DNA of 64,000 nucleotides from Dictyostelium discoideum. Lineage: Eukaryota. The stretch covers positions 2,016,001 to 2,080,000 of the forward strand of contig CM000151.3 in assembly GCA_000004695.1 (NCBI GenBank), written 5' to 3'. Position numbers and translations under genes: made by a program. Of the stretch, positions 3,070 to 48,100 are shown one piece after another. The stretch's first letter is position 1. Each line of letters opens with the position of its first letter. Under the pieces are notes generated by a model. The model saw only the letters and a list, made by a program, of their open reading frames with translations. It made no database searches and was not told where the DNA came from.

Positions 3070-3870
3070 TTAAGCAACGGTTTCGATTTTTTCACCACGT
3101 CTCTTGAGGGCAGCGTTACGTTCATCAACTCTTGAACGTCTGACACCTTTACCGGCTGGGAGGGAGACGAAAGTTTGGGAGGCTTTACCAATGATGAAGA
3201 CGTTAGATAAACGAGTGGCGAATTGATGACCAGCAGTATCGGTAACGTGAACGATATCGAAGGAACCTGGATGTTTTTCACGGTGAGTGACGGCACCAAC
3301 ACGACCTAAATTGTGACCACCAACGATCATACATAAGTTGTTGACTTCGAATGGGATGAAAGCAGTGATTTTACCTGATTCAATATCGATTTTAATGGTA
3401 TCGTGGATTGAGATGGCTGGATCTGGGTAACGGATGGTACGACCGTCATCAGTGTGGACGTATGGGATACCTTGGTTACCAGTTTCAACACGGGTGACAC
3501 GGGCTAATTTGAATTTAGCTTCTTCTGGGGTGATTCTTTGTAATGTGAATCTACCTTTTGGATCAAAGAGTAAACGGAAATTTTCCTTGGTCTTTTCAAT
3601 TGAGATGACATCCATGAAACCAGCTGGGTAGTTTGGATCGGTACGGACTTTACCATCAACTTTGACGAGTCTTTGCATTAAGATTAAGGTGACTTCCTTT
3701 TTGGTTAAGGCATACTTTAATCTGTTTCTTAAGACGAGGATTAATGGGAGACATTCTCTTAATTTGTGTGGACCACTTGATGGTCTTGGTGCCCATTTAC
3801 CAGATAATTTATCTAACATCCAGTGATTTGGAGCTGCTAATCTTTTTAAATGTTTCTTTGGACCACGAGC
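3070..3870 (-). CDS. rps4: 40S ribosomal protein S4 (eS4), main exon; the initiator ATG lies on a separate upstream micro-exon
   Basis: The encoded protein [43 protein letters not shown]...GEKIETVA matches eS4 unambiguously. The frame extends upstream as [17 protein letters not shown] to a tttttttttatatag acceptor at 3871-3872, so the first exon is just ATG, which is common for Dictyostelium ribosomal protein genes. Candidate ATG exons are 4301..4303 (ATG|gtatgg, giving a 430-bp intron) or 4245..4247 (ATG|gtcaat). Codon usage is C-biased, typical of highly expressed genes. The stop TAA lies at 3070-3072. Confidence 0.9.
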
Positions 3871-21249: not shown

Positions 21250-23714
21250 ATGGCTAATGAAATAATTACACCTACTGAAGGTGAATTAAAAAGTAAGTAT
21301 CCCCTTTTTATTTTTTTTCATTTTATTTTTATAGTATTTTAAATTAAATTATTAATTTTTATTATAACATAAAAAAAAAAAAAAAAAAAGCTATCATTGA
21401 TAAAACAGCAGCATATGCAGCAAAATTAGGTGAGAGTTTTGAAAATAAAGTTAAACAAAGAGAAGGACACAATGCAAAATTTAATTTTATGAAAGAAGGA
21501 GATCAATATTATCCTTATTATAGAAATAAAATTGTAGAGAATAAAGCAAAAATTCAAGCAGATGCAGCAGCAGCTGCCGCAGCTGCAAATCCAAAAACTC
21601 CTTCTACTACCACCACCACAACAACAACCACAACAGCAACAACACCACTACCAACAGCAACAGCAACAACAACATCACCAACTCCAACAACATCATCAAC
21701 TATAGTACCAGTACCTCAAACAAATTCAACTCAACAACTACAACAACAACAACAACAACAACAACAAACAACACCAGTATTTGAAAAACCACAACCTCCA
21801 CCCCCACCACCACCAAAAAAAGAACCAACACAACCTGATCCACTTTTATATATTTTAGATGTACCTGATTTTATGACCCCATTAGAATTGTAAGTTGTAA
21901 AATTAATTAATTTTATTGTATCTATCATATTAATTTATTAATTTTTTTTTTTTTAATAATTATTACTCTCTAGAGATACAATTAGATTAACAGCACAATT
22001 TATTGCAAAAAATGGTGATAGTTTTTTTATGGAATTAGCAAGTAGAGAAGTAAAGAATAGTCAATTTGATTTTTTAAAACCAACCAATCATTTGTATGAA
22101 TGGTTTAGAGCATTGGTAGAATCCTATGCTCAAATTATATATCCACCACAAGGTATAAAGGAGCAATTAAAGTCAAACTATTTCTCCAATAAACAAACCA
22201 TTCTAGAGAGAGCAATGAATCGTTGTGAATATAATCAACTCAAAGAGATTGAGGAACAAAAGAAAGAGGAGCGTGAGGATGAGGAGAAAACAATCATTGC
22301 CTCAATTGATTGGCATGATTTTGTAATTGTAGATACCATTGAATTCAATGAGGATGATTTAGACGACTTACCACAACCAAGAACATTTGACCAACTGATT
22401 GCTGGTGATACACCATTTGGTGGCAGTGATTTCGATAATGATGGTCATGGTTCAAATGGTAAAGGTGGTCAAGATATGGAGATGGAGATGGATATGGAGA
22501 TGGAGATGGATGATGAAGATAATAATAATAATGAGGATGAGATTGAAGAATCATCATTATCGTCAACAAATACAACAGGTAATTTACCACCAAAAGATCA
22601 ATCAAAATTAAAAATTGTTAAAGATTATCAAAAATCAAATTCATCTGTTAAATCTAATGCACCAACAAAATTAACTCAGTTATGTCAATTTTGTAAACAA
22701 GAGATACCATTGGACGAAATGCAAGAACATATGAGAATTGAATTAATTCAAAAACAACAAAGAGATTCGAGATTGGGTGGTGGTGGTAGTAGTAATAATA
22801 ATAATAATTTAACAAATACTTTAACTCAAGATGACGATATCGCAAGAAATCTTCAATCATTTGCAAGTAAAAGAGTTGATATCTTTGGTGAAACAGAATC
22901 TTCTAAGAAACAAGATGAACAACCAACTCAAGCACCAAAAGTTATTTGGGATGGTCATTCTGGTAGTATTCCAAGAGTACAAGCTGCTCAACAAGCTGCT
23001 CAATTAGCTGCTCAACAAGCTGCTCAACAAAAAGCTGCTGCTATTGCTGCTCAACAAGCATCTCAGCAACAAGCATCTCAACAACAACAACAACAATTAC
23101 AACCACCACAACCAATTGGTATTCACCATCATCCACAACGTCATTTACCACCAGGTATGATGCCTCCTGGAATGATGCCACCTGGAATGATGCCACCAGG
23201 TATGATGCCACCTGGAATGGTACCACCACCACCATTTGGTATGATTCCACCTGGAATGGTACCACCACCACCACCAGGTTTAATGATACCAACTGCACCT
23301 CCAGGATTAATGATACCACCAACACAACAACAACAATTACCTCCCCAAACAAATACATCCCCATCCTCATCCTCTTCAATTAAAGTTGAAGAACCTCAAT
23401 CTAAAAAGTTAAAGATTGATGATGTATTAATTCCTGAATCAGTTTGGTTACAAAATAATCCAAACCCTGTCAATTTAACAGTAGAAATGGCTGATAAAAG
23501 TAATATTTATCAAATTACACTTCAACCAACCGATAGTATATCTTTATTAAAAGAGAAAATTAAAGAACTTAATGGTATGCCAACTAATAAACAAAAATTA
23601 CAAGCTCCTGGTTTATCAATTTTAAAAGATACTTGTAGTATAGCTTTTTATAATTTAAAATCATTAGCAATAGTTACTTGTGGTCAAAAAAAAAAAGGCG
23701 GTAAAAAGAAATAG
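21250..23714 (+). CDS. sf3a1: Splicing factor 3A subunit 1 (SF3a120/Prp21-like) with two SURP domains and a C-terminal ubiquitin-like domain; exons 21250..21292, 21391..21889 and 21974..23714, about 760 aa
   Basis: Exon 1 is MANEIITPTEGELK with a A|gtaagt donor. Exon 2 begins after aaaaaag with SURP1 (IIDKTAAYAAKLGESFENKVKQREGHNAKFNFMKEGDQYYPYYRNKI) and ends GAATT|gtaagt. Exon 3 begins after ctctag with SURP2 (IRLTAQFIAKNGDSFFMELASREVKNSQFDFLKPTNHLYEWFRALVESY). It carries a PPGMMPPGMM proline-rich region and the ubiquitin-like fold (IYQITLQPTDSISLLKEKIKELNGMPTNKQKLQAPGLSILKD) before the stop at 23714. The introns are 98 and 84 bp. Confidence 0.8.
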
Positions 23715-33699: not shown

Positions 33700-34384
33700 G
33701 TTTTCTTTTATTATTGAGATAAGGAATAATTAATAATGAATGAATGAATAAGAGGTATAGGAAAAATTATAATTAATTTAAAAAAAACAATAAAAAAAAA
33801 ATAAAAAAATTATTTAAAAGCAAAGAAAAAAAAAAACAAAAAAAAAATGAGAATAATAAAAATAATAATAAAAAAATTAAATAAAATTAAATTAAATTAC
33901 AAGTGTGGTAAATTTGTAAACACACATCAATGTTCAAAACAAATCTCATTACCACAGCTTCCTTATTTTTTTGGGAAAAAAAATAAAAAAAAAATAAAAA
34001 ATAAAAAATAAAAAAATAAAAAAAAAATAATAAAAAATAAATTTCTTTAGGTGGTCAATATTTTTTTTCTATTTTTTAATAAATCAAGATTAAATTCATT
34101 TATTTTTGGATCTGAAAAAAAAAAAAAAATAATAAAAAAAAAAAAATATAAAAAAATAAAAATTTTTTTCATTTGTTATTAAAATTTGGGAAAAGAAAAT
34201 GAGTCTGAGAAAACTAAAGGGTAATTATATAATTATACGAGCACCAAATCCTTTTTATTTTTAAGAATTTCTTCTTATATTGAATTGTTTTTATATTTGT
34301 ATTAATTAATTTCCTACTAATTGTTCTTCAAAATAAAAAAACAATTACAAAAAATGGTAAATAATAAAATTTAAAAAAAAAAAG

Positions 34385-34432
<48 letters not shown>

Positions 34433-35219
34433 ATAAAAAATATATGGAATTAAAAGAAAATATATTTTTTTTTATTTTTATCACTATTTTTTAAATCAAT
34501 TTTTTATTTTGGAAATAATTATAAGTGATTTAAAGGCGACTTATTTATTCTGAAAAAAAAAATTAAATTTTTTTTTTTTTTTTTTTTTTATTTATGATCA
34601 AACGAAAATTTTTTTACTTTTTTTTGTTTTCTTAAATTCTGGTTTCAAATCTTTAAATCAAAAATTCTTATTTTATTTTTAATATAAAAGAAATTTTTTT
34701 TTTTTTTTTAGCTCATTCAAAAAAAAAACAAAGTATATACCTTTAAAATAAAATAAAAAAAAAAAAAAAAAAACCAGCTTTTAAAATATAAAAAAACAAT
34801 AAAAATTATTATTAAAAAAAAAAAATTTATTTAATATTTTGAAAAAAAAAAAAAAAAAAAAAAACATACAAATTAATTAATTGTTTTTTTAATTAGATAT
34901 CTTTTTAAAAATAGGTTATTTTATGTCAATGTGGGTTATTTATTTTTTTTAATAGATATTTTGTATAGTTATTGGTTTATTTAGTATGAATCGGTACTAA
35001 TCCAATTGCCAGAGAATGAAAGGATGTTATTCTATTTAAGATATATCTTTTCATTCTCGGGCATTGTTGATAGGTAGATTTAAACAGCTGTTTCACTAAA
35101 TAATTTATTTTTTTAAAAAAATAAAAAAAACTATTTTATACATTAAACACAAAATAAAATATGGAAATTTTTTAATTTTCAATCAAGGTAAATAATAAAA
35201 ATACTTTTTATTCCAATAA

Positions 35220-35260
<41 letters not shown>

Positions 35261-35968
35261 TTTTTACTAATATTAATTTATATTATAGCTTGATTGGTAT
35301 AAAACAAAAATTAAAAAATCAAAGTTTAGTGAACTGTATTTTGCTGAAATCAGTGTGATTGTGTTTGATAATCCCAAACAAAATCCCAAACAAAATCAGA
35401 AACAATATAAAATAAAATAAAATAAAAATAAAAAAATAAAATAAAAAAAAAAACAAAATAATTATTTTTTATTGTTTTGAAATTTCAGATCCATTATCTT
35501 TTTTTTTTTGTTAAATTTATTAATATTAACTATGATCCAATAAATATTATTGGTTTTATATATTCCAACATTTTTCGATTTTGGATCAATTTTTCAATAT
35601 AAAGAATCAGAGAAACTAACAAAGTTTGTAATTTATTTTTTCATTATCAATAATTTTAATTTTATTTTTCAAAAGATTTCAAAAGAAATTTAGAGTGATT
35701 CCTTTTTTGGAATATAACGAATAAAAAAAAATAAATAATAAAAAGAATAAAAAAAAATAAAAAAAAATAAAATTTGAAAAAACAGATAATAGATTGTCAT
35801 ATACGGATAATTGGACATTCTACTTTAATTTGATTTGATTTAAATTTTTTTTTTAAATTTTTTTTTTTTTAAATATTTTCTGTATAGATATAAAAAAAAA
35901 AAAAATTAAAAAAGTTTTATTTATATATATAATTTATAAATTGTTGGAAAAAATATTATTTTTATAAA

Positions 35969-38900
35969 TTATAAGCCAATATCACATTTAACAAACTGTT
36001 GATCATAATAAAAATCATCTTCTTGATTAATATTATCATCTTCATTGTAATAATCACATTCCCAACCATTTTCATTACAATCAAATAAATCATCTTGATA
36101 ATATTGGTATTGTTCTTGTTCTACTCCTACATCATCTTTTTCTTGGTAATCATTATAAAAGAAATCTTCTCCTTGATAATCATCAAATGAGAAATTACGT
36201 TGTTTATCGTTAAAATCTTTTTCAAATTCATCAAATGTTAAATTTCTATGATTGAAACCATTACCATTACTATTATTATTATTAAAAAACTTCATTAAAT
36301 TTTGTATATCTTCACGAGTTGAATCTGATTTTGAAATTATTTTTTTAAATTCTTTAATTAATTCATCTTGATCTCCAACTATTTGTAAATTAGTTTCAAA
36401 TACCTTATAATAAGATTCATCAATCTTTGCCAAGAATACTAAAGTATGTAAAATTTGAAAATTAATTTGATAATTATTACTTTCATCTGATAATAAATTT
36501 TTTAATAATTGTTCAAAAAACTATAATAATAAAATAAATAAAAATTAATAAATGTAATATGATTATATGTTATTATTGAAATTAACTACTTACTTTTAAT
36601 TTTTTAAATTGATTTTTTAATTTTTTTGAACATTTAATTGGATTATGAAGTGAAATGATAACATTTGCCAATGGTATATAAAATTTAATTGATGGATTTA
36701 AAAACAAAGCAACTTTAATACCATTTAATAATGTTGAAATAACCTTATCATTCATTTTAATATTTAAAGATAAAGTAACTAAAAACTTTACAACTATTAT
36801 ACTAATTTGTAGAAGTGTTGTTAAAAAATGAGGATTATCAATACAAAGATTATGAAAAATTGGTAAAAGGTTTGATAGGGATTCAATGATTTTTGAATTT
36901 AAAATACAACCAATTCTAATTACTGATGGATCATTCTTTTCTTTTACTTTATTTAAATTTGTTTCTCTCTATCAATAATTGTGAAATTCTTATAAGGGTC
37001 TGAGAATTTATATGAATTTACAATTATTTTTAAACATTTTAAAACTGAAACATATGACGGCTGATCAGTTTCAATCACTTGAACTTTACCAAAATCTACT
37101 AAAAATTTATTAACTGTTTCAATTGGAATTAAATCTGGTGCTTTTCTAAATCTATAAATTTCTTCAAGTATTGTATAATCCATTATACCATCATTTATTA
37201 AATAATTATTTGAAAATAATTTTAAAAACTTTTCATGATTTGGTTTAACAATTGTTGATTCAATATATTCATTCTCTATTTCATTAAATAATAACATTTC
37301 TTTTTGTTTATAATTATCATCAATAAATTGGTATTGTTGTTGGTGTGCTTGATTGTAATTATTTATTTCATCCATTGGTATTGCATTTTCATATGACTCG
37401 TAATTTGATGATTCATTATCTTGGTAAATATCAATTTGTTGTTCTTGCTCTTGTTTTTGTTGTTGTTGCTGTTTTGAATCTTCATTACTATTTCCAAATT
37501 GTGTATATTCAATACTAATATTAAGTTCATCTTCAATTAGATCCTCTTGGAATATATCCATTTCAATTTGATATTTTTTATGAATTTTATTTTTTTCATG
37601 ATTGCTAATTAATTCAATATGACCATTTTGATTTTTTGGGTGAATTGAATAATAACTTGGTGGTTCATCACTTGGAAGTGTTGTTGTTGTTGCTTTTGTT
37701 GTTGGTGTTGTTATTGCTTTTTGATATAAATTATCGTTATTTAAAAACATATTACATGATAGTAATAGTGGTTGTTGTGGTTGATGTTGCTCTTTGACTA
37801 CCAATTTTTCAAAAATTGGTTGATATTGCTCTTTGACCACCAATTCTTCAAAAATTGGTTTCATTTGTAAGAAATCCAACATTTCTACAATATATTTTAA
37901 TTTTTGTTCATCTCCACCTTGATTGTAACAATTTAAAAAAACAATAGACCTTAATTGGCAAAGTGGAAAGTTGTTAAAAAAATCTTTAATTAATTCTACA
38001 CAATACTATTTAAAAAAAAAAAAAATAATAATAATAATAAAAGTGTGTTAATTTAAATAATTTTTTTTATAATATATATGTATTAATACGTACTGTAATA
38101 ATTAAAAATGGGGTTTTAATTGGGTCTGAAAGGATATTAAAATCAATATCTCCAGAAACAAAACCTTTGTTTACGACATCAATATCGAAACCATTTGATA
38201 AATTTGATTTCAATATATAATTCTGATTGAAAATTTTAAAAAACTTTGAAAAAGTAACTTTTTCAATATTTAATTTTATTGAATATGATAAACTCTTTTT
38301 ATCAACGAAATCATAATGATTTGAAATCGAGTTGATATCAAGGAATTGAATTTCCTTATAATTAATATTACAATCTTGGAAATATGATAAAAAACTATTA
38401 TTTATTATAGAATTAATATAATATAATAAACAATAGTATATTTCTATATATATTTGTAAAAGATTTAAAAATTATATATTAATATTCAAATATAAAAATA
38501 AAAAAATAAAAATAAAAATAAAAAAATAACTTACCACAAGATATATTTGATTTTATAAATTGAAAGTCATTTTCACTTTGGCAATTTAATATTTTATTTT
38601 TCAATGATTTTGAATCTTTACTTGAAAGATATAAAAGTCTTTCTACTTGTATTAAAATATCATAATTTTTGTAATCTTGATATTGTAAATTTGAAATTAA
38701 TTCAACTGAATTATAAATTTCAATTATTCTATTTTTTAATGGAATATCAGTAACAACCGATTCTAATAATCTTAAAAATTTATCTTTTTTTTCAAATGCA
38801 TCATATTGAACATATCGAAAACATTGAACCTAAAATAAAAAAAAAATAAAATAAAATAAAACCAAATTAGTTTTTTTTTTTTTTTTTTTTTAAAGGAAAA

Positions 38901-40743: not shown

Positions 40744-41388
40744 ATGTCTACACAATCACCAACTTCAACAAATAATAATATTAGTAATATTGCAAATCAA
40801 TGTAATAAAAGGATTGCAATGGTATGTGCATCCAATCAAAATCGTAGTTTGGAAGCACATCATTTATTTGTAAAGAATGGATTTAAGAATATAAGGTCAT
40901 TTGGTACATCAGCACATTGTAAATTACCAGGACCATCAATTCATCAACCAAATATATTTTCATTTGGTACACCATATCAAGAGATCTATACATCACTAAA
41001 GAATCAAGATCAAGAACTTTACATTAGAAATGGTTTATTGAATATGTTGGAACGTAATATCTCTGTTAAACTTGCACCAGAGAAATGGCAAGAAGAACAA
41101 CAATCAAAATTTGAAATCGTCTATACATTTGATCAACGTGTTTACGATGCCGTCATTGAAGATCTCTTACAAAGAGATGTATCCTCCTCACTATTACAAC
41201 CTGTACATATAATCAATTTACAAGTTAAAGATACTCACGAAGAAGCTGTAGGTGGTGCACAACATGCTTTAGAAATTACTTCAATCATTGAAAAAACTCT
41301 TAATTGGGAAGAGAAATTAGATCAAATTTTAGAAGATTTTTATAAACAAACTTCAAGACAATTTTTACATACTTTAATGTTTTATTAA
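40744..41388 (+). CDS. ssu72: RNA polymerase II CTD phosphatase Ssu72
   Basis: A single-exon ORF of 214 aa. The active-site motif AMVCASNQNRSLEAHH and the whole length align with human SSU72 (VCSSNQNRSMEAH...SFGTGTHVKLPGP...ERVYD...HEEA...TFLHT). Confidence 0.9.
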   Translation: MSTQSPTSTNNNISNIANQCNKRIAMVCASNQNRSLEAHHLFVKNGFKNIRSFGTSAHCKLPGPSIHQPNIFSFGTPYQEIYTSLKNQDQELYIRNGLLNMLERNISVKLAPEKWQEEQQSKFEIVYTFDQRVYDAVIEDLLQRDVSSSLLQPVHIINLQVKDTHEEAVGGAQHALEITSIIEKTLNWEEKLDQILEDFYKQTSRQFLHTLMFY

Positions 41389-45112: not shown

Positions 45113-48100
45113 ATGAATTATAATAATGATTTATATTCTAGAAATAGATGGAGTAAAAATAATAACAATACCAATAATAATAATAATAATAGTTATAATA
45201 CCCATCATATTAATAATGATATAAGTAATAACTATAATAGTAATAATACAAATATATTTAATAAATCCTATTCAAATAATAATAATAATGATAATAATAA
45301 TAATAATTATAATAGTGGTGTTAATAATAATTATAATGGTAGTGGTTCAATAAAAATTATACCACAATTTATAAAAATTTATATTTTCAAAATTAATAAT
45401 AATAAATGGGTACAACTTTTAAAAAGAATAATTAGACAATTAACTCAAGGTAAATTGAAAAAGATATTTTTGGTTTTTCAAGTTTTAGTTTTATTCTTAT
45501 TGTTGGAACATACTTTAAATAAATTTCAGCGTACAAATGATAGTGATTCAACATTGATTGGTTATCGAAATAATTTATGTTCACCTTATGGCAACGTTGG
45601 TGGAATAGAATACCGTGACTCTTTTTCAGAGGTTTTTAATAGAAATCATCTAAATCAATTATTAAATAATTATAATATCGATCGGGATATATTATGTAAT
45701 TATGGACAACAATATCAATTTAAAAAGTTTATTTGGTTATTTGTCGATTCATTAGCACATGATCAGGCGTATGATATGATTGAGCCATTTAAAGAGAATT
45801 CCAATGTTTATAGGGTACTTAATCATGGCTTCAAATTCTCCACTGCCATCTATACTACATTCTTTACTGGTAAGATTCCGACAAACTATGCAGGTAAACC
45901 AATTCAATCGGATAATATATTCTATCAAATGAAGAGAGCTGGTAATCATATGCATTTCGTTGGTCCGGAATTCCCTGCACCAGCATTGTTGGCCGATTCA
46001 CCATCCACCAATCGTTACTTTGAAGAATTCACCATTGTACCCGACGAAACAAATCTATTCTCACAATTGTTTGATCAAGCCAATTCAAATCCAACATCAG
46101 AATCTGTGGCACAGAGATTGAATCAGTTCACAAATGATGGTAGAAAGAGTGTAATGTTCACCACCAATCTATTGGATGATAAAATCCATAGAAATGGTAA
46201 AACTCATCCACCAACATTAAGATTACTATCAACTCTAACTAAAAACATACCATTGTTGAAGAAATGGTTGGCCGATAATCCAGATTACTTATTCATTTTA
46301 AATAGTGATCATGGTGGTAGTAAAACAGGTGGTGTCAACGAAGGTGATCTTCATGGTGCTAAAGATGGTGGTAATGAAGGTTTCTTTTTATTCTACAATG
46401 AAAAACATATAGCATTACAATCGAAACAATCACAACAAATCGATGATAGACCTTGGTTGGATACAGTCGATGTTGCTCCAACCATTGTCAAATACTTTAA
46501 AGATACCAATATACCTTTAGAATCATTGGGTTTGGTCTCCTCTGGTCATTACAATGATTTAAATTCACCAAACATCAATAAAACTGCAATCTATATGGAT
46601 CTATTAATCAATGCAATTCAAATCAGAGAATTATGTCTTTTAAAAGGTTTCCCCTATAGTGAAAGTGATTTCGAAAGAGCAATTTCTTTAGGTACATCAA
46701 TTCAATCTCATCAATTATCTGATAAAATAGATCAACTTAAAAACTTTATTATAAACATTAAAGAGCCAATGGTTGAATTTAAAAAATTCCCTTTAAATTA
46801 TTTAATTTTCACTGGAATTTTATTATTTTTAGTACAGGTAATTAATTTATTTATTTCTAATCTTTTTTTTTTTTTTATAAAAATTATTAATCTTTTTTTT
46901 TATTTTTTTTTTTTATATAGATTATAAATTTAAAGATAGAAATTTCACAAAATGATATTTTATCATTATTAAAGAATAATTTTTTACCAACTGTATTCCC
47001 ATATTTTTATATCTATATTGACTTTTTATTTTTAAAATTCGATTACCATAAACATTTTACAAATGTTTTCAATTTTTATTTCATAATTATTCCAGTCATA
47101 ATTTTATATTTAATTTATAATTTAATGATAGATAAAGTTAGTAATAATCTTAACGAAGATAATGAAGAATTTATTAATAATAATGATATTGATGAAGTTG
47201 ATATTATTTCTCAAGAATTACAACAACAACAACAACAACCTCAAGTACCTTTAATTCATATGAATCAACAACAGCAACAACAATTACAAGTAGAAATAGC
47301 ACCACTTGAGGAAATTTCTTTAGATGATTATAAACAACCACAATCACAACAACAACAACAACAATCACAACCCTCATCAAATGGTATGATTGCTTCGTCA
47401 GCCGAATCATCAACAGCTAATGTACCAAATACTCCAATTAACCAACAAGAACCTATTTTCATACCACAACAACTACAGCAACCACAACAACAACAACAAC
47501 AACAACAAATTGAACAACAACAACAACAACAACAACAACAGCAACAGCAACAACAACAACAATATAATAGTAATAATAATAATAATAACCAACAAGAAGA
47601 ATTAACACCATCAATGTTAGGTAATATTAATTCAAAAATTGAATATGAATGGTTAAATGGTATAGCATTTAATATTTTCTTTGTAGTTGGAACATTTGTA
47701 TCAAGTCATTTCATTATGGAATTTTTACCTATGATTTATGAAAGTTTAGAATCATTTAGTTTTTATACAAACTATTTTATTTTATATTATTTCATTTATA
47801 TTTTAACAATAATTAAAACCATTCAACTTGATAATAGTAATAATAATAATAATTATAATAATACTAGTGGTAATATTTTATTAAATAATCCAATTAAATT
47901 ATTAAATTCAATGCAAACTAGATTATTATTTTTAAAGAGTGGTGGAGTTTATTTGATAGCAGCAACATTATCATTATTTTATGATATTAGTGGTATACCA
48001 TCAATAATGCAACTATGTTATTTGATATTATTGATTCAAGTTTTGATTTTGGTTGCAATGGGTAATTTAATTGACGAATTATGTTTCATTTCAAGTATAT

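Follow-up and report, generated by a model that had tools for sequence, protein, structure and literature searches.

A stable predicted RNA foldback restricted to Dictyostelium discoideum in an AT-rich intergenic spacer of chromosome 2

Introduction

MicroRNAs (miRNAs) of Amoebozoa are mostly intergenic, are less AT-rich than the surrounding spacer and have precursors of 75-125 nt (PMC11014262). They are largely species-specific and are subject to rapid gain and loss (PMC11014262). In D. discoideum they depend on DrnB and RbdB and derive from capped Pol II primary transcripts (pri-miRNAs), which start 116-281 nt before the 5p arm, at a G preceded by a T-rich run (PMC6161686). Class I RNAs are shorter (42-65 nt), have their 5' and 3' ends held together by a short stem, carry an 11-nt motif and are conserved across Dictyostelia (PMC7919456). 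Genes of this type are expected to have a DUSE at a distance of about 60 nt before the start, or else a DUSE with a TGTG box 60 nt downstream (PMC7919456). The D. discoideum genome also contains 1,770 perfect palindromes of 19-80 nt, most of them non-coding and with no function assigned (Drewell et al., 2023; PMC10111430).

Here we describe an imperfect hairpin in an intergenic spacer of a 64-kb window of D. discoideum DNA; the window is the whole stretch that was analysed, and all positions refer to it. An earlier note had proposed that a segment of roughly 140 bp in this spacer is a small non-coding RNA gene resembling Class I or snoRNA-like RNAs, with a DUSE-like motif close by. The general idea behind this proposal is reasonable: a structured, GC-enriched island in an AT-rich spacer is a candidate non-coding RNA.

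Materials and methods

RNA folding and stability scan

The hairpin was folded as RNA on both strands, and the minimum free energy (MFE) of the plus strand was compared with that of 200 dinucleotide shuffles. For the stability scan all sliding 100-nt windows of the 64 kb were folded on both strands (12,782 folds; mean -10.1, standard deviation 5.6 kcal/mol).

Sequence searches

Rfam 15 was run over the whole window, and at E<=10 on the locus and on its orthologue in one of the divergent strains. The window was scanned for DUSE matches, for the Class I motif and for tRNA genes; the tRNA scans included the related loci. C and D boxes were read from the sequence on either strand of 34950-35120.

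Comparison with known miRNAs used the high-confidence criteria of Liao 2018, namely a hairpin energy below -0.2 kcal/mol/nt and at least 60% of the miRNA duplex bases paired (PMC6161686). Mature and hairpin sequences were taken from Liao 2018 (Table S1 and Fig. S2), Meier 2016 (Table 2) and the supplements of Edelbroek 2024; the list of Avesson 2012 (ddi-mir-7089 to 7105, thug-S miRNAs) and 7131 were left out of this comparison.

Comparative loci

Synteny was traced through Ssu72 orthologues. The D. discoideum loci came from GCA_054883475.1 (L001 and L004) and from two more divergent strains (L007 and L008); those of relatives came from D. cf. discoideum (two loci, L005 and L009), D. citrinum (L002), D. 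dimigraforme (L006) and D. purpureum (L003). The D. purpureum contig ends 1.9 kb upstream of ssu72 and is uninformative. A covariance model was built from three nearly identical alleles of the hairpin and was run on all fetched loci.

Results

The locus and its spacer

The 64-kb window is typical of dictyostelid DNA. The hairpin lies in a spacer of 2.27 kb flanked by two minus-strand genes, in agreement with the earlier description of more than 2 kb of intergenic DNA. The coordinates of the main features are given in Table 1. The GC content of the hairpin is 32%, against 12-14% in flanks of 0.5-1 kb; the island is real, although the term 'GC-balanced' that had been applied to it is too strong for 32%. 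The statement that the segment has no ORF on either strand holds in substance; mechanically, a 39-aa GTG ORF can be called on the minus strand at 34977-35096. This ORF is unrecorded in assembled public runs, which served as a proxy for transcript contigs. A protein search with the neighbouring 309-aa exon gave zero homologues, and no tRNA gene was found in the window or in the related loci.

Table 1. Coordinates of the hairpin, its parts and the neighbouring features in the 64-kb window.
Feature	Position	Strand	Remarks
EF-hand gene	ATG ~33699	-	Bounds the spacer; 1.3 kb from the hairpin
Spacer segment carrying the hairpin, found in D. discoideum sensu stricto only	~34230-35620		~1.4 kb; from alignments
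T-run ending in G	34569-34596	+	~400 nt upstream; loose pri-miRNA start motif of Liao 2018 (PMC6161686)
Second T-run, then AG	34693-34712	+	Upstream of the hairpin
'DUSE-like' motif aaataACCCACATtgac	34925-34941	-	Not a usable DUSE for the hairpin
Full imperfect hairpin (foldback)	34984-35085	+	41 pairs including 4 G.U; GC 32%
5' arm, near-perfect upper stem	35008-35027	+	Includes the arm 35009-35023 of the earlier note
Apical loop with 3-bp mini-stem	35028-35042	+	Site of strain differences
3' arm, upper stem	35043-35062	+	Includes the arm 35047-35061 of the earlier note
1027-aa gene	Stop ~35954-35969	-	Bounds the spacer; 0.9 kb from the hairpin
ssu72 (DDB_G0272871)	40744-41388		Single exon; identical to the D. 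discoideum AX4 gene, chromosome 2

Several other features were noted in the spacer. A GC-richer block at 33903-33965 (…AGTGTGGTAAATTTGTAAACACACATCAATGTTCAAAAC…CTCATTACCACAGC), about 200 nt upstream of the EF-hand ATG, is conserved in D. cf. discoideum and D. citrinum, unlike the remaining spacer, and is likely to be a promoter element of the EF-hand gene. On the plus strand, 35188-35288 has the form of a 101-nt intron (AAG/GTAAAT ... TATAG/CTT) with a length-variable (AAT)n tract. Its GT and AG are kept in L007 and L008, no ORF spans it, and in L007 the downstream 'exon' carries a 20-nt deletion; if real, this candidate intron would be part of a non-coding transcript, which might include the hairpin as well. 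The 12-mer ATCCCAAACAAA is repeated in tandem at 35371-35394, with two copies in the window and three in L007. This repeat includes a DUSE-like TCCCAAAC on the plus strand, 60 nt downstream of which nothing is GC-enriched.

Hairpin fold and stability

The sequence quoted in the earlier note is present at 34988-35097, and the two arms of its inverted repeat, CCAGAGAATGAAAGG (35009-35023) and CTTTTCATTCTCGGG (35047-35061), are exactly as it stated, with 23 nt between them. Watson-Crick pairs account for 13 of the 15 positions, and there is one G.U pair in addition. The 15-bp stem is the core of a larger imperfect hairpin of 41 bp on the plus strand, which consists of one continuous stem, interrupted by bulges of only 1-2 nt, and a small apical loop.

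The plus-strand RNA has an MFE of -36.1 kcal/mol, compared with -19.1 +/- 3.3 kcal/mol for the 200 dinucleotide shuffles (z -5.2; 0 of 200 as good). This corresponds to -0.354 kcal/mol/nt over 102 nt and to -0.368 kcal/mol/nt over 96 nt. The folding that the earlier note had suggested thus gave a structure stronger than the one it described: the hairpin is real, lies beyond chance and had been understated. The minus-strand RNA folds less stably (MFE -26.5 kcal/mol, z -4.1), since each of the four plus-strand G.U pairs turns into an A.C mismatch.

In the stability scan the hairpin ranked second among the 12,782 folds. The sole better window is a coding repeat with 53% GC, so that the hairpin is the strongest non-coding structure in the 64-kb window. 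Other stable 100-nt folds (-44 to -29 kcal/mol) were seen on the minus strand at 23181-23280, 23341-23440, 37791-37890 and 46121-46220; all four lie inside long ORFs, on repetitive coding sequence such as the PPGMM repeats of a 561-aa ORF.

Between 71 and 95% of the bases are paired in any 21-nt window of the arms (81-95% in the upper stem). Each 21-nt window starting at 35000-35008 has about 90% of its bases paired, and those starting at 35040-35047 have 90-95%. On this predicted fold the 5' upper stem (Table 1) together with 35003-35007 is the most plausible candidate for a 5p small-RNA region, and the 3' upper stem the most plausible candidate for a 3p region.

As DNA the two arms are about 78% identical, with 32 Watson-Crick matches, four transitions, one transversion-type mismatch and a few indels of 1-2 nt. 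With arms of only this identity the repeat is not a fresh perfect palindrome; if it began as a perfect inverted duplication, it would predate the split between the D. discoideum strains. Each of the four transitions is a G.U on the plus strand and an A.C on the minus strand. This pattern is a weak hint (P ~0.06, about 1 in 16) that the plus-strand RNA fold is the one that has been preserved.

Class I, snoRNA and DUSE features

The proposal of a Class I or snoRNA-like gene under a DUSE promoter failed on every testable feature. The DUSE-like motif lies about 10 nt from the interval 34935-34950 that had been assigned to it (Table 1). Within it, ACCCACAT at 34929-34936 on the minus strand, with CCCACAT at 34929-34935, has one mismatch to the DUSE consensus [AT]CCCA[CT]AA. 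The motif is on the strand opposite to the hairpin and is oriented away from it, and a minus-strand gene driven by it would begin at about 34870, in a poly-A/T tract. Exact DUSE matches number three in the window, against 10.6 expected by chance, and none of them is within 6 kb of the hairpin. Read on the plus strand the motif becomes CAATGTG, which is similar to the TGTG box of Class I genes; no DUSE is found 60 nt upstream of it.

The 11-nt motif of Class I RNAs, which we take to be CCTTACAGCAA (CCUUACAGCAA-like), does not occur anywhere in the window, whether exactly or with one mismatch. The fold is a continuous 41-bp stem of 96-102 nt, unlike the 42-65 nt and short terminal stem of Class I RNAs. 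No C box (RUGAUGA) or D box (CUGA) was read on either strand of 34950-35120. There is no H/ACA pseudouridylation pocket in the single hairpin, with its bulges of 1-2 nt, nor any Rfam snoRNA match, and an ACA at 35084-35086 is incidental. The Rfam check that had been proposed found no family at the gathering score anywhere in the window. At E<=10 the locus and its L007 orthologue gave only generic hairpin models at chance level (mir-973, MIR1509 and mir-7398, with MIR1444 on a strain allele).

Like Class I RNAs, the hairpin is a small GC-enriched island within the AT-rich intergenic DNA of D. discoideum. The length, the short stem, the 11-nt motif, the DUSE at about -60 and the dictyostelid-wide conservation of Class I RNAs are all missing here. 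The geometry predicted for the hairpin fits a pre-miRNA or a foldback rather than a Class I RNA or a snoRNA.

Distribution in strains and species

The gene order 121-aa gene, EF-hand gene, gene of about 1000 aa and Ssu72 is kept wherever the fetched sequence spans it, which holds for every locus but the short one of D. purpureum. D. discoideum has 2.27 kb of spacer at this place, and the other species have only about 0.4-0.8 kb. Each of the four D. discoideum assemblies examined carries the hairpin, in identical form in GCA_054883475.1, which is about 99.5% identical to the window over 20 kb. BLAST, multiple alignment and the covariance model all fail to find it in the corresponding spacer of D. 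citrinum, of D. dimigraforme or of either D. cf. discoideum assembly. The conserved synteny that the earlier note suggested looking for in D. purpureum was thus checked in closer relatives, and the hairpin is not conserved beyond D. discoideum. The alignments place it in a segment of the spacer that is found only in D. discoideum sensu stricto (Table 1), parts of which (34230-34430 and 35450-35720) differ between strains.

In the two divergent strains the hairpin carries two or three point changes and a 6-nt insertion at its 3' base. G35026T, beside the apical loop, shortens the apical stem in these alleles, and the loop itself varies between strains by a 1-nt indel and one substitution. L008 alone has G35069A, which breaks the C35002-G35069 pair of the lower stem on the plus strand. 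The stretches 35003-35025 and 35045-35066, the likeliest to form a small-RNA duplex, are invariant in both strains. Neighbouring unique sequence (34851-35200) has an identity of 0.86-0.98 in bins of 50 nt, a single 19-nt deletion in L007 aside. The stem is no more conserved than these neighbours, and a selective signal is therefore undetectable among the D. discoideum strains.

The alignments also brought out local irregularities. Over the 265 nt of 34537-34801 there are about 45 differences from GCA_054883475.1, in the midst of kilobases that hardly differ; the other three D. discoideum assemblies concur at these sites, mostly with G or C where the window has A or T. This cluster suggests low-quality reference sequence or local hypermutation. 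In L007 (about 3480-3700) and at the equivalent place in L008 a non-homologous, GC-richer block of about 250 nt replaces 34230-34430 of the window; Rfam and tRNA searches of the replacement block gave no match. Positions 35450-35720 are missing in the two divergent strains, and the spacer is an indel hotspot. In D. dimigraforme (L006, 2936-3683) the EF-hand gene is called on the strand opposite to that in all other species, which suggests a local inversion or a different gene call.

Comparison with known miRNAs

The folding energy of the hairpin, -0.35 to -0.37 kcal/mol/nt, is below the limit of -0.2 kcal/mol/nt, and the 71-95% pairing of any 21-nt arm window exceeds the 60% required of a miRNA duplex, the position of the duplex being hypothetical. 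All published D. discoideum miRNA hairpins, at -0.51 to -0.73 kcal/mol/nt, are more stable than the hairpin described here. Small RNAs have been surveyed deeply in published work, and no match was found among the mature and hairpin sequences of the three published sets that were compared. None of the motifs found upstream of mir-7095, mir-7098 and mir-7104, three loci on chromosome 2, occurs near the hairpin. Full-text literature searches with 11-16-mers of both arms returned nothing or unrelated siRNA and primer matches, and a 24-mer of the 5' arm had 0 matches in JGI metagenomes. Within the window no target or parent sequence was found: arm 21-mers have no match elsewhere at up to four mismatches, save AT-rich ones from the apical loop.

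Two T-runs on the plus strand upstream of the hairpin recall the pri-miRNA start motif (Table 1). Such motifs number 101 in the window, and the chance of having one within 500 nt upstream is about 0.3; with this many motifs the upstream T-runs are not discriminating and are not evidence.

The precursors of D. discoideum miRNAs (ddi-mir-1176/1177, 7097 and 1178-1185) thus share with this locus a single imperfect hairpin of about 100 nt, an intergenic position, GC enrichment, species specificity, a T-rich run ending in G upstream, and energy and pairing values on the same side of both limits. They differ from it in that the present hairpin is less stable per nucleotide, matches none of the sequences compared and is a predicted fold.

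Discussion

The reading that we favour, and to which we give about an even chance, is that the hairpin is a young D. discoideum-specific foldback that would be a competent substrate for Dicer (DrnB) and is probably neutral or weakly expressed. An imperfect inverted duplication would have arisen in the spacer segment of about 1.4 kb that is peculiar to D. discoideum. The plus-strand RNA is predicted to fold into a 41-bp hairpin of 96-102 nt that resembles an amoebozoan pre-miRNA in size, position and composition. If Pol II transcribes the spacer, the nuclear DrnB/RbdB microprocessor would cut this hairpin into duplexes of about 21 nt, the most plausible predicted source of which is 35003-35025 paired with 35045-35066; hence the term 'proto-miRNA'. 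A neutral or weakly expressed state is more likely than that of an established regulatory miRNA.

Other explanations share part of this evidence. It is possible, though we would not expect it, that the locus is already a bona fide expressed, DrnB-dependent miRNA gene with a capped plus-strand Pol II pri-miRNA, either unannotated or within the Avesson 2012 series ddi-mir-7089 to 7105. Its geometry, intergenic position, GC enrichment and species restriction match those of amoebozoan miRNAs; the duplex-forming parts are invariant in the divergent strains while the loop and the base vary; at 290-400 nt upstream there is a T-run followed by G, a spacing similar to that of pri-mir-1176 (281 nt); and the sole Rfam signals are weak generic matches to miRNA precursor models. 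Against such a gene stand a stability per nucleotide below that of every known D. discoideum miRNA hairpin, the want of a match in Liao 2018, Meier 2016 and Edelbroek 2024, the absence of the mir-7095, mir-7098 and mir-7104 upstream motifs from the vicinity, and a conservation no greater than that of the flanks. The narrower version, an unannotated expressed miRNA gene born in D. discoideum after the split from D. cf. discoideum and D. citrinum, is rather unlikely. The gene first proposed for this segment, a small non-coding RNA of Class I or snoRNA type driven by a DUSE, has next to no likelihood left: the GC-enriched island and the CCCACAT heptamer about 50 nt from the hairpin base speak for it, but the motif is mismatched and misdirected, and sister species lack the hairpin, whereas Class I RNAs and snoRNAs are conserved among them. 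Judged from the sequence, the hairpin is not a DUSE-driven Class I RNA, snRNA or snoRNA gene.

A mobile element (MITE-like, or related to thug or to some other DNA transposon) could have left the hairpin as a fragment or foldback that came with the 1.4-kb segment and has no host function; we consider this improbable. Such an origin would suit a hairpin within a lineage-specific insertion of complex indel history among strains, and thug-S elements do yield hairpin-derived small RNAs in D. discoideum (PMC4894637, PMC6161686). However, neither the hairpin nor the segment has a second copy within the 64 kb or within the nine related loci (about 180 kb), low-complexity A/T aside; no target-site duplication is evident at the hairpin base; and there are no nearby tRNA genes to attract TRE elements. 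A transposon origin is therefore unsupported in the sequence covered. A cis-acting role, as a distal promoter or insulator palindrome of the EF-hand gene, a termination or processing hairpin of the 1027-aa gene, or a DNA cruciform, is more improbable still. The position between two minus-strand genes, the significant fold of the minus-strand RNA (z -4.1) and the persistence on that strand of the L008 G35069A pair, as G.U, would accord with it. Sister species, however, keep both genes in the same order without the hairpin and with a spacer of 0.4-0.8 kb, and the promoter-proximal conserved block is elsewhere, at 33903-33965. Distances of 0.9-1.3 kb, moreover, are long for Dictyostelium UTRs, which counts against a cis-acting element.

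A proto-miRNA foldback, as we favour, can be set beside two further systems. The perfect palindromes of D. discoideum (Drewell et al., 2023; PMC10111430) are likewise non-coding inverted repeats in an AT-rich context that form a stable single-strand hairpin; they are perfect and measure 19-80 nt, whereas the present hairpin is imperfect, has about 100 nt and more G/C, and is not listed in that catalogue. The plant 'proto-miRNA' model, in which young miRNA genes are born from inverted duplications, has in common with this locus a long foldback that is confined to one lineage, is not conserved beyond a single species and has arms that have partly degenerated (about 78% identity here). It differs in that no parent or target gene resembling the arms was found within the 64-kb window.

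Should the foldback be inert, it would be one more palindrome of an AT-rich genome, and it would show that a strong hairpin with GC enrichment is insufficient proof of a non-coding RNA gene. Should the miRNA-birth reading be true, the locus would provide a dated de novo birth of a miRNA within a lineage-specific spacer insertion, together with natural wild-strain variants in the loop, in the base and in one pair of the lower stem. If DrnB-dependent small RNAs are produced from it, it would be a concrete young locus whose presence and absence are already mapped in close relatives. The turnover of amoebozoan miRNAs is very fast and most of them are species-specific (Edelbroek 2024), and a young locus of this kind would bear on how they are born.
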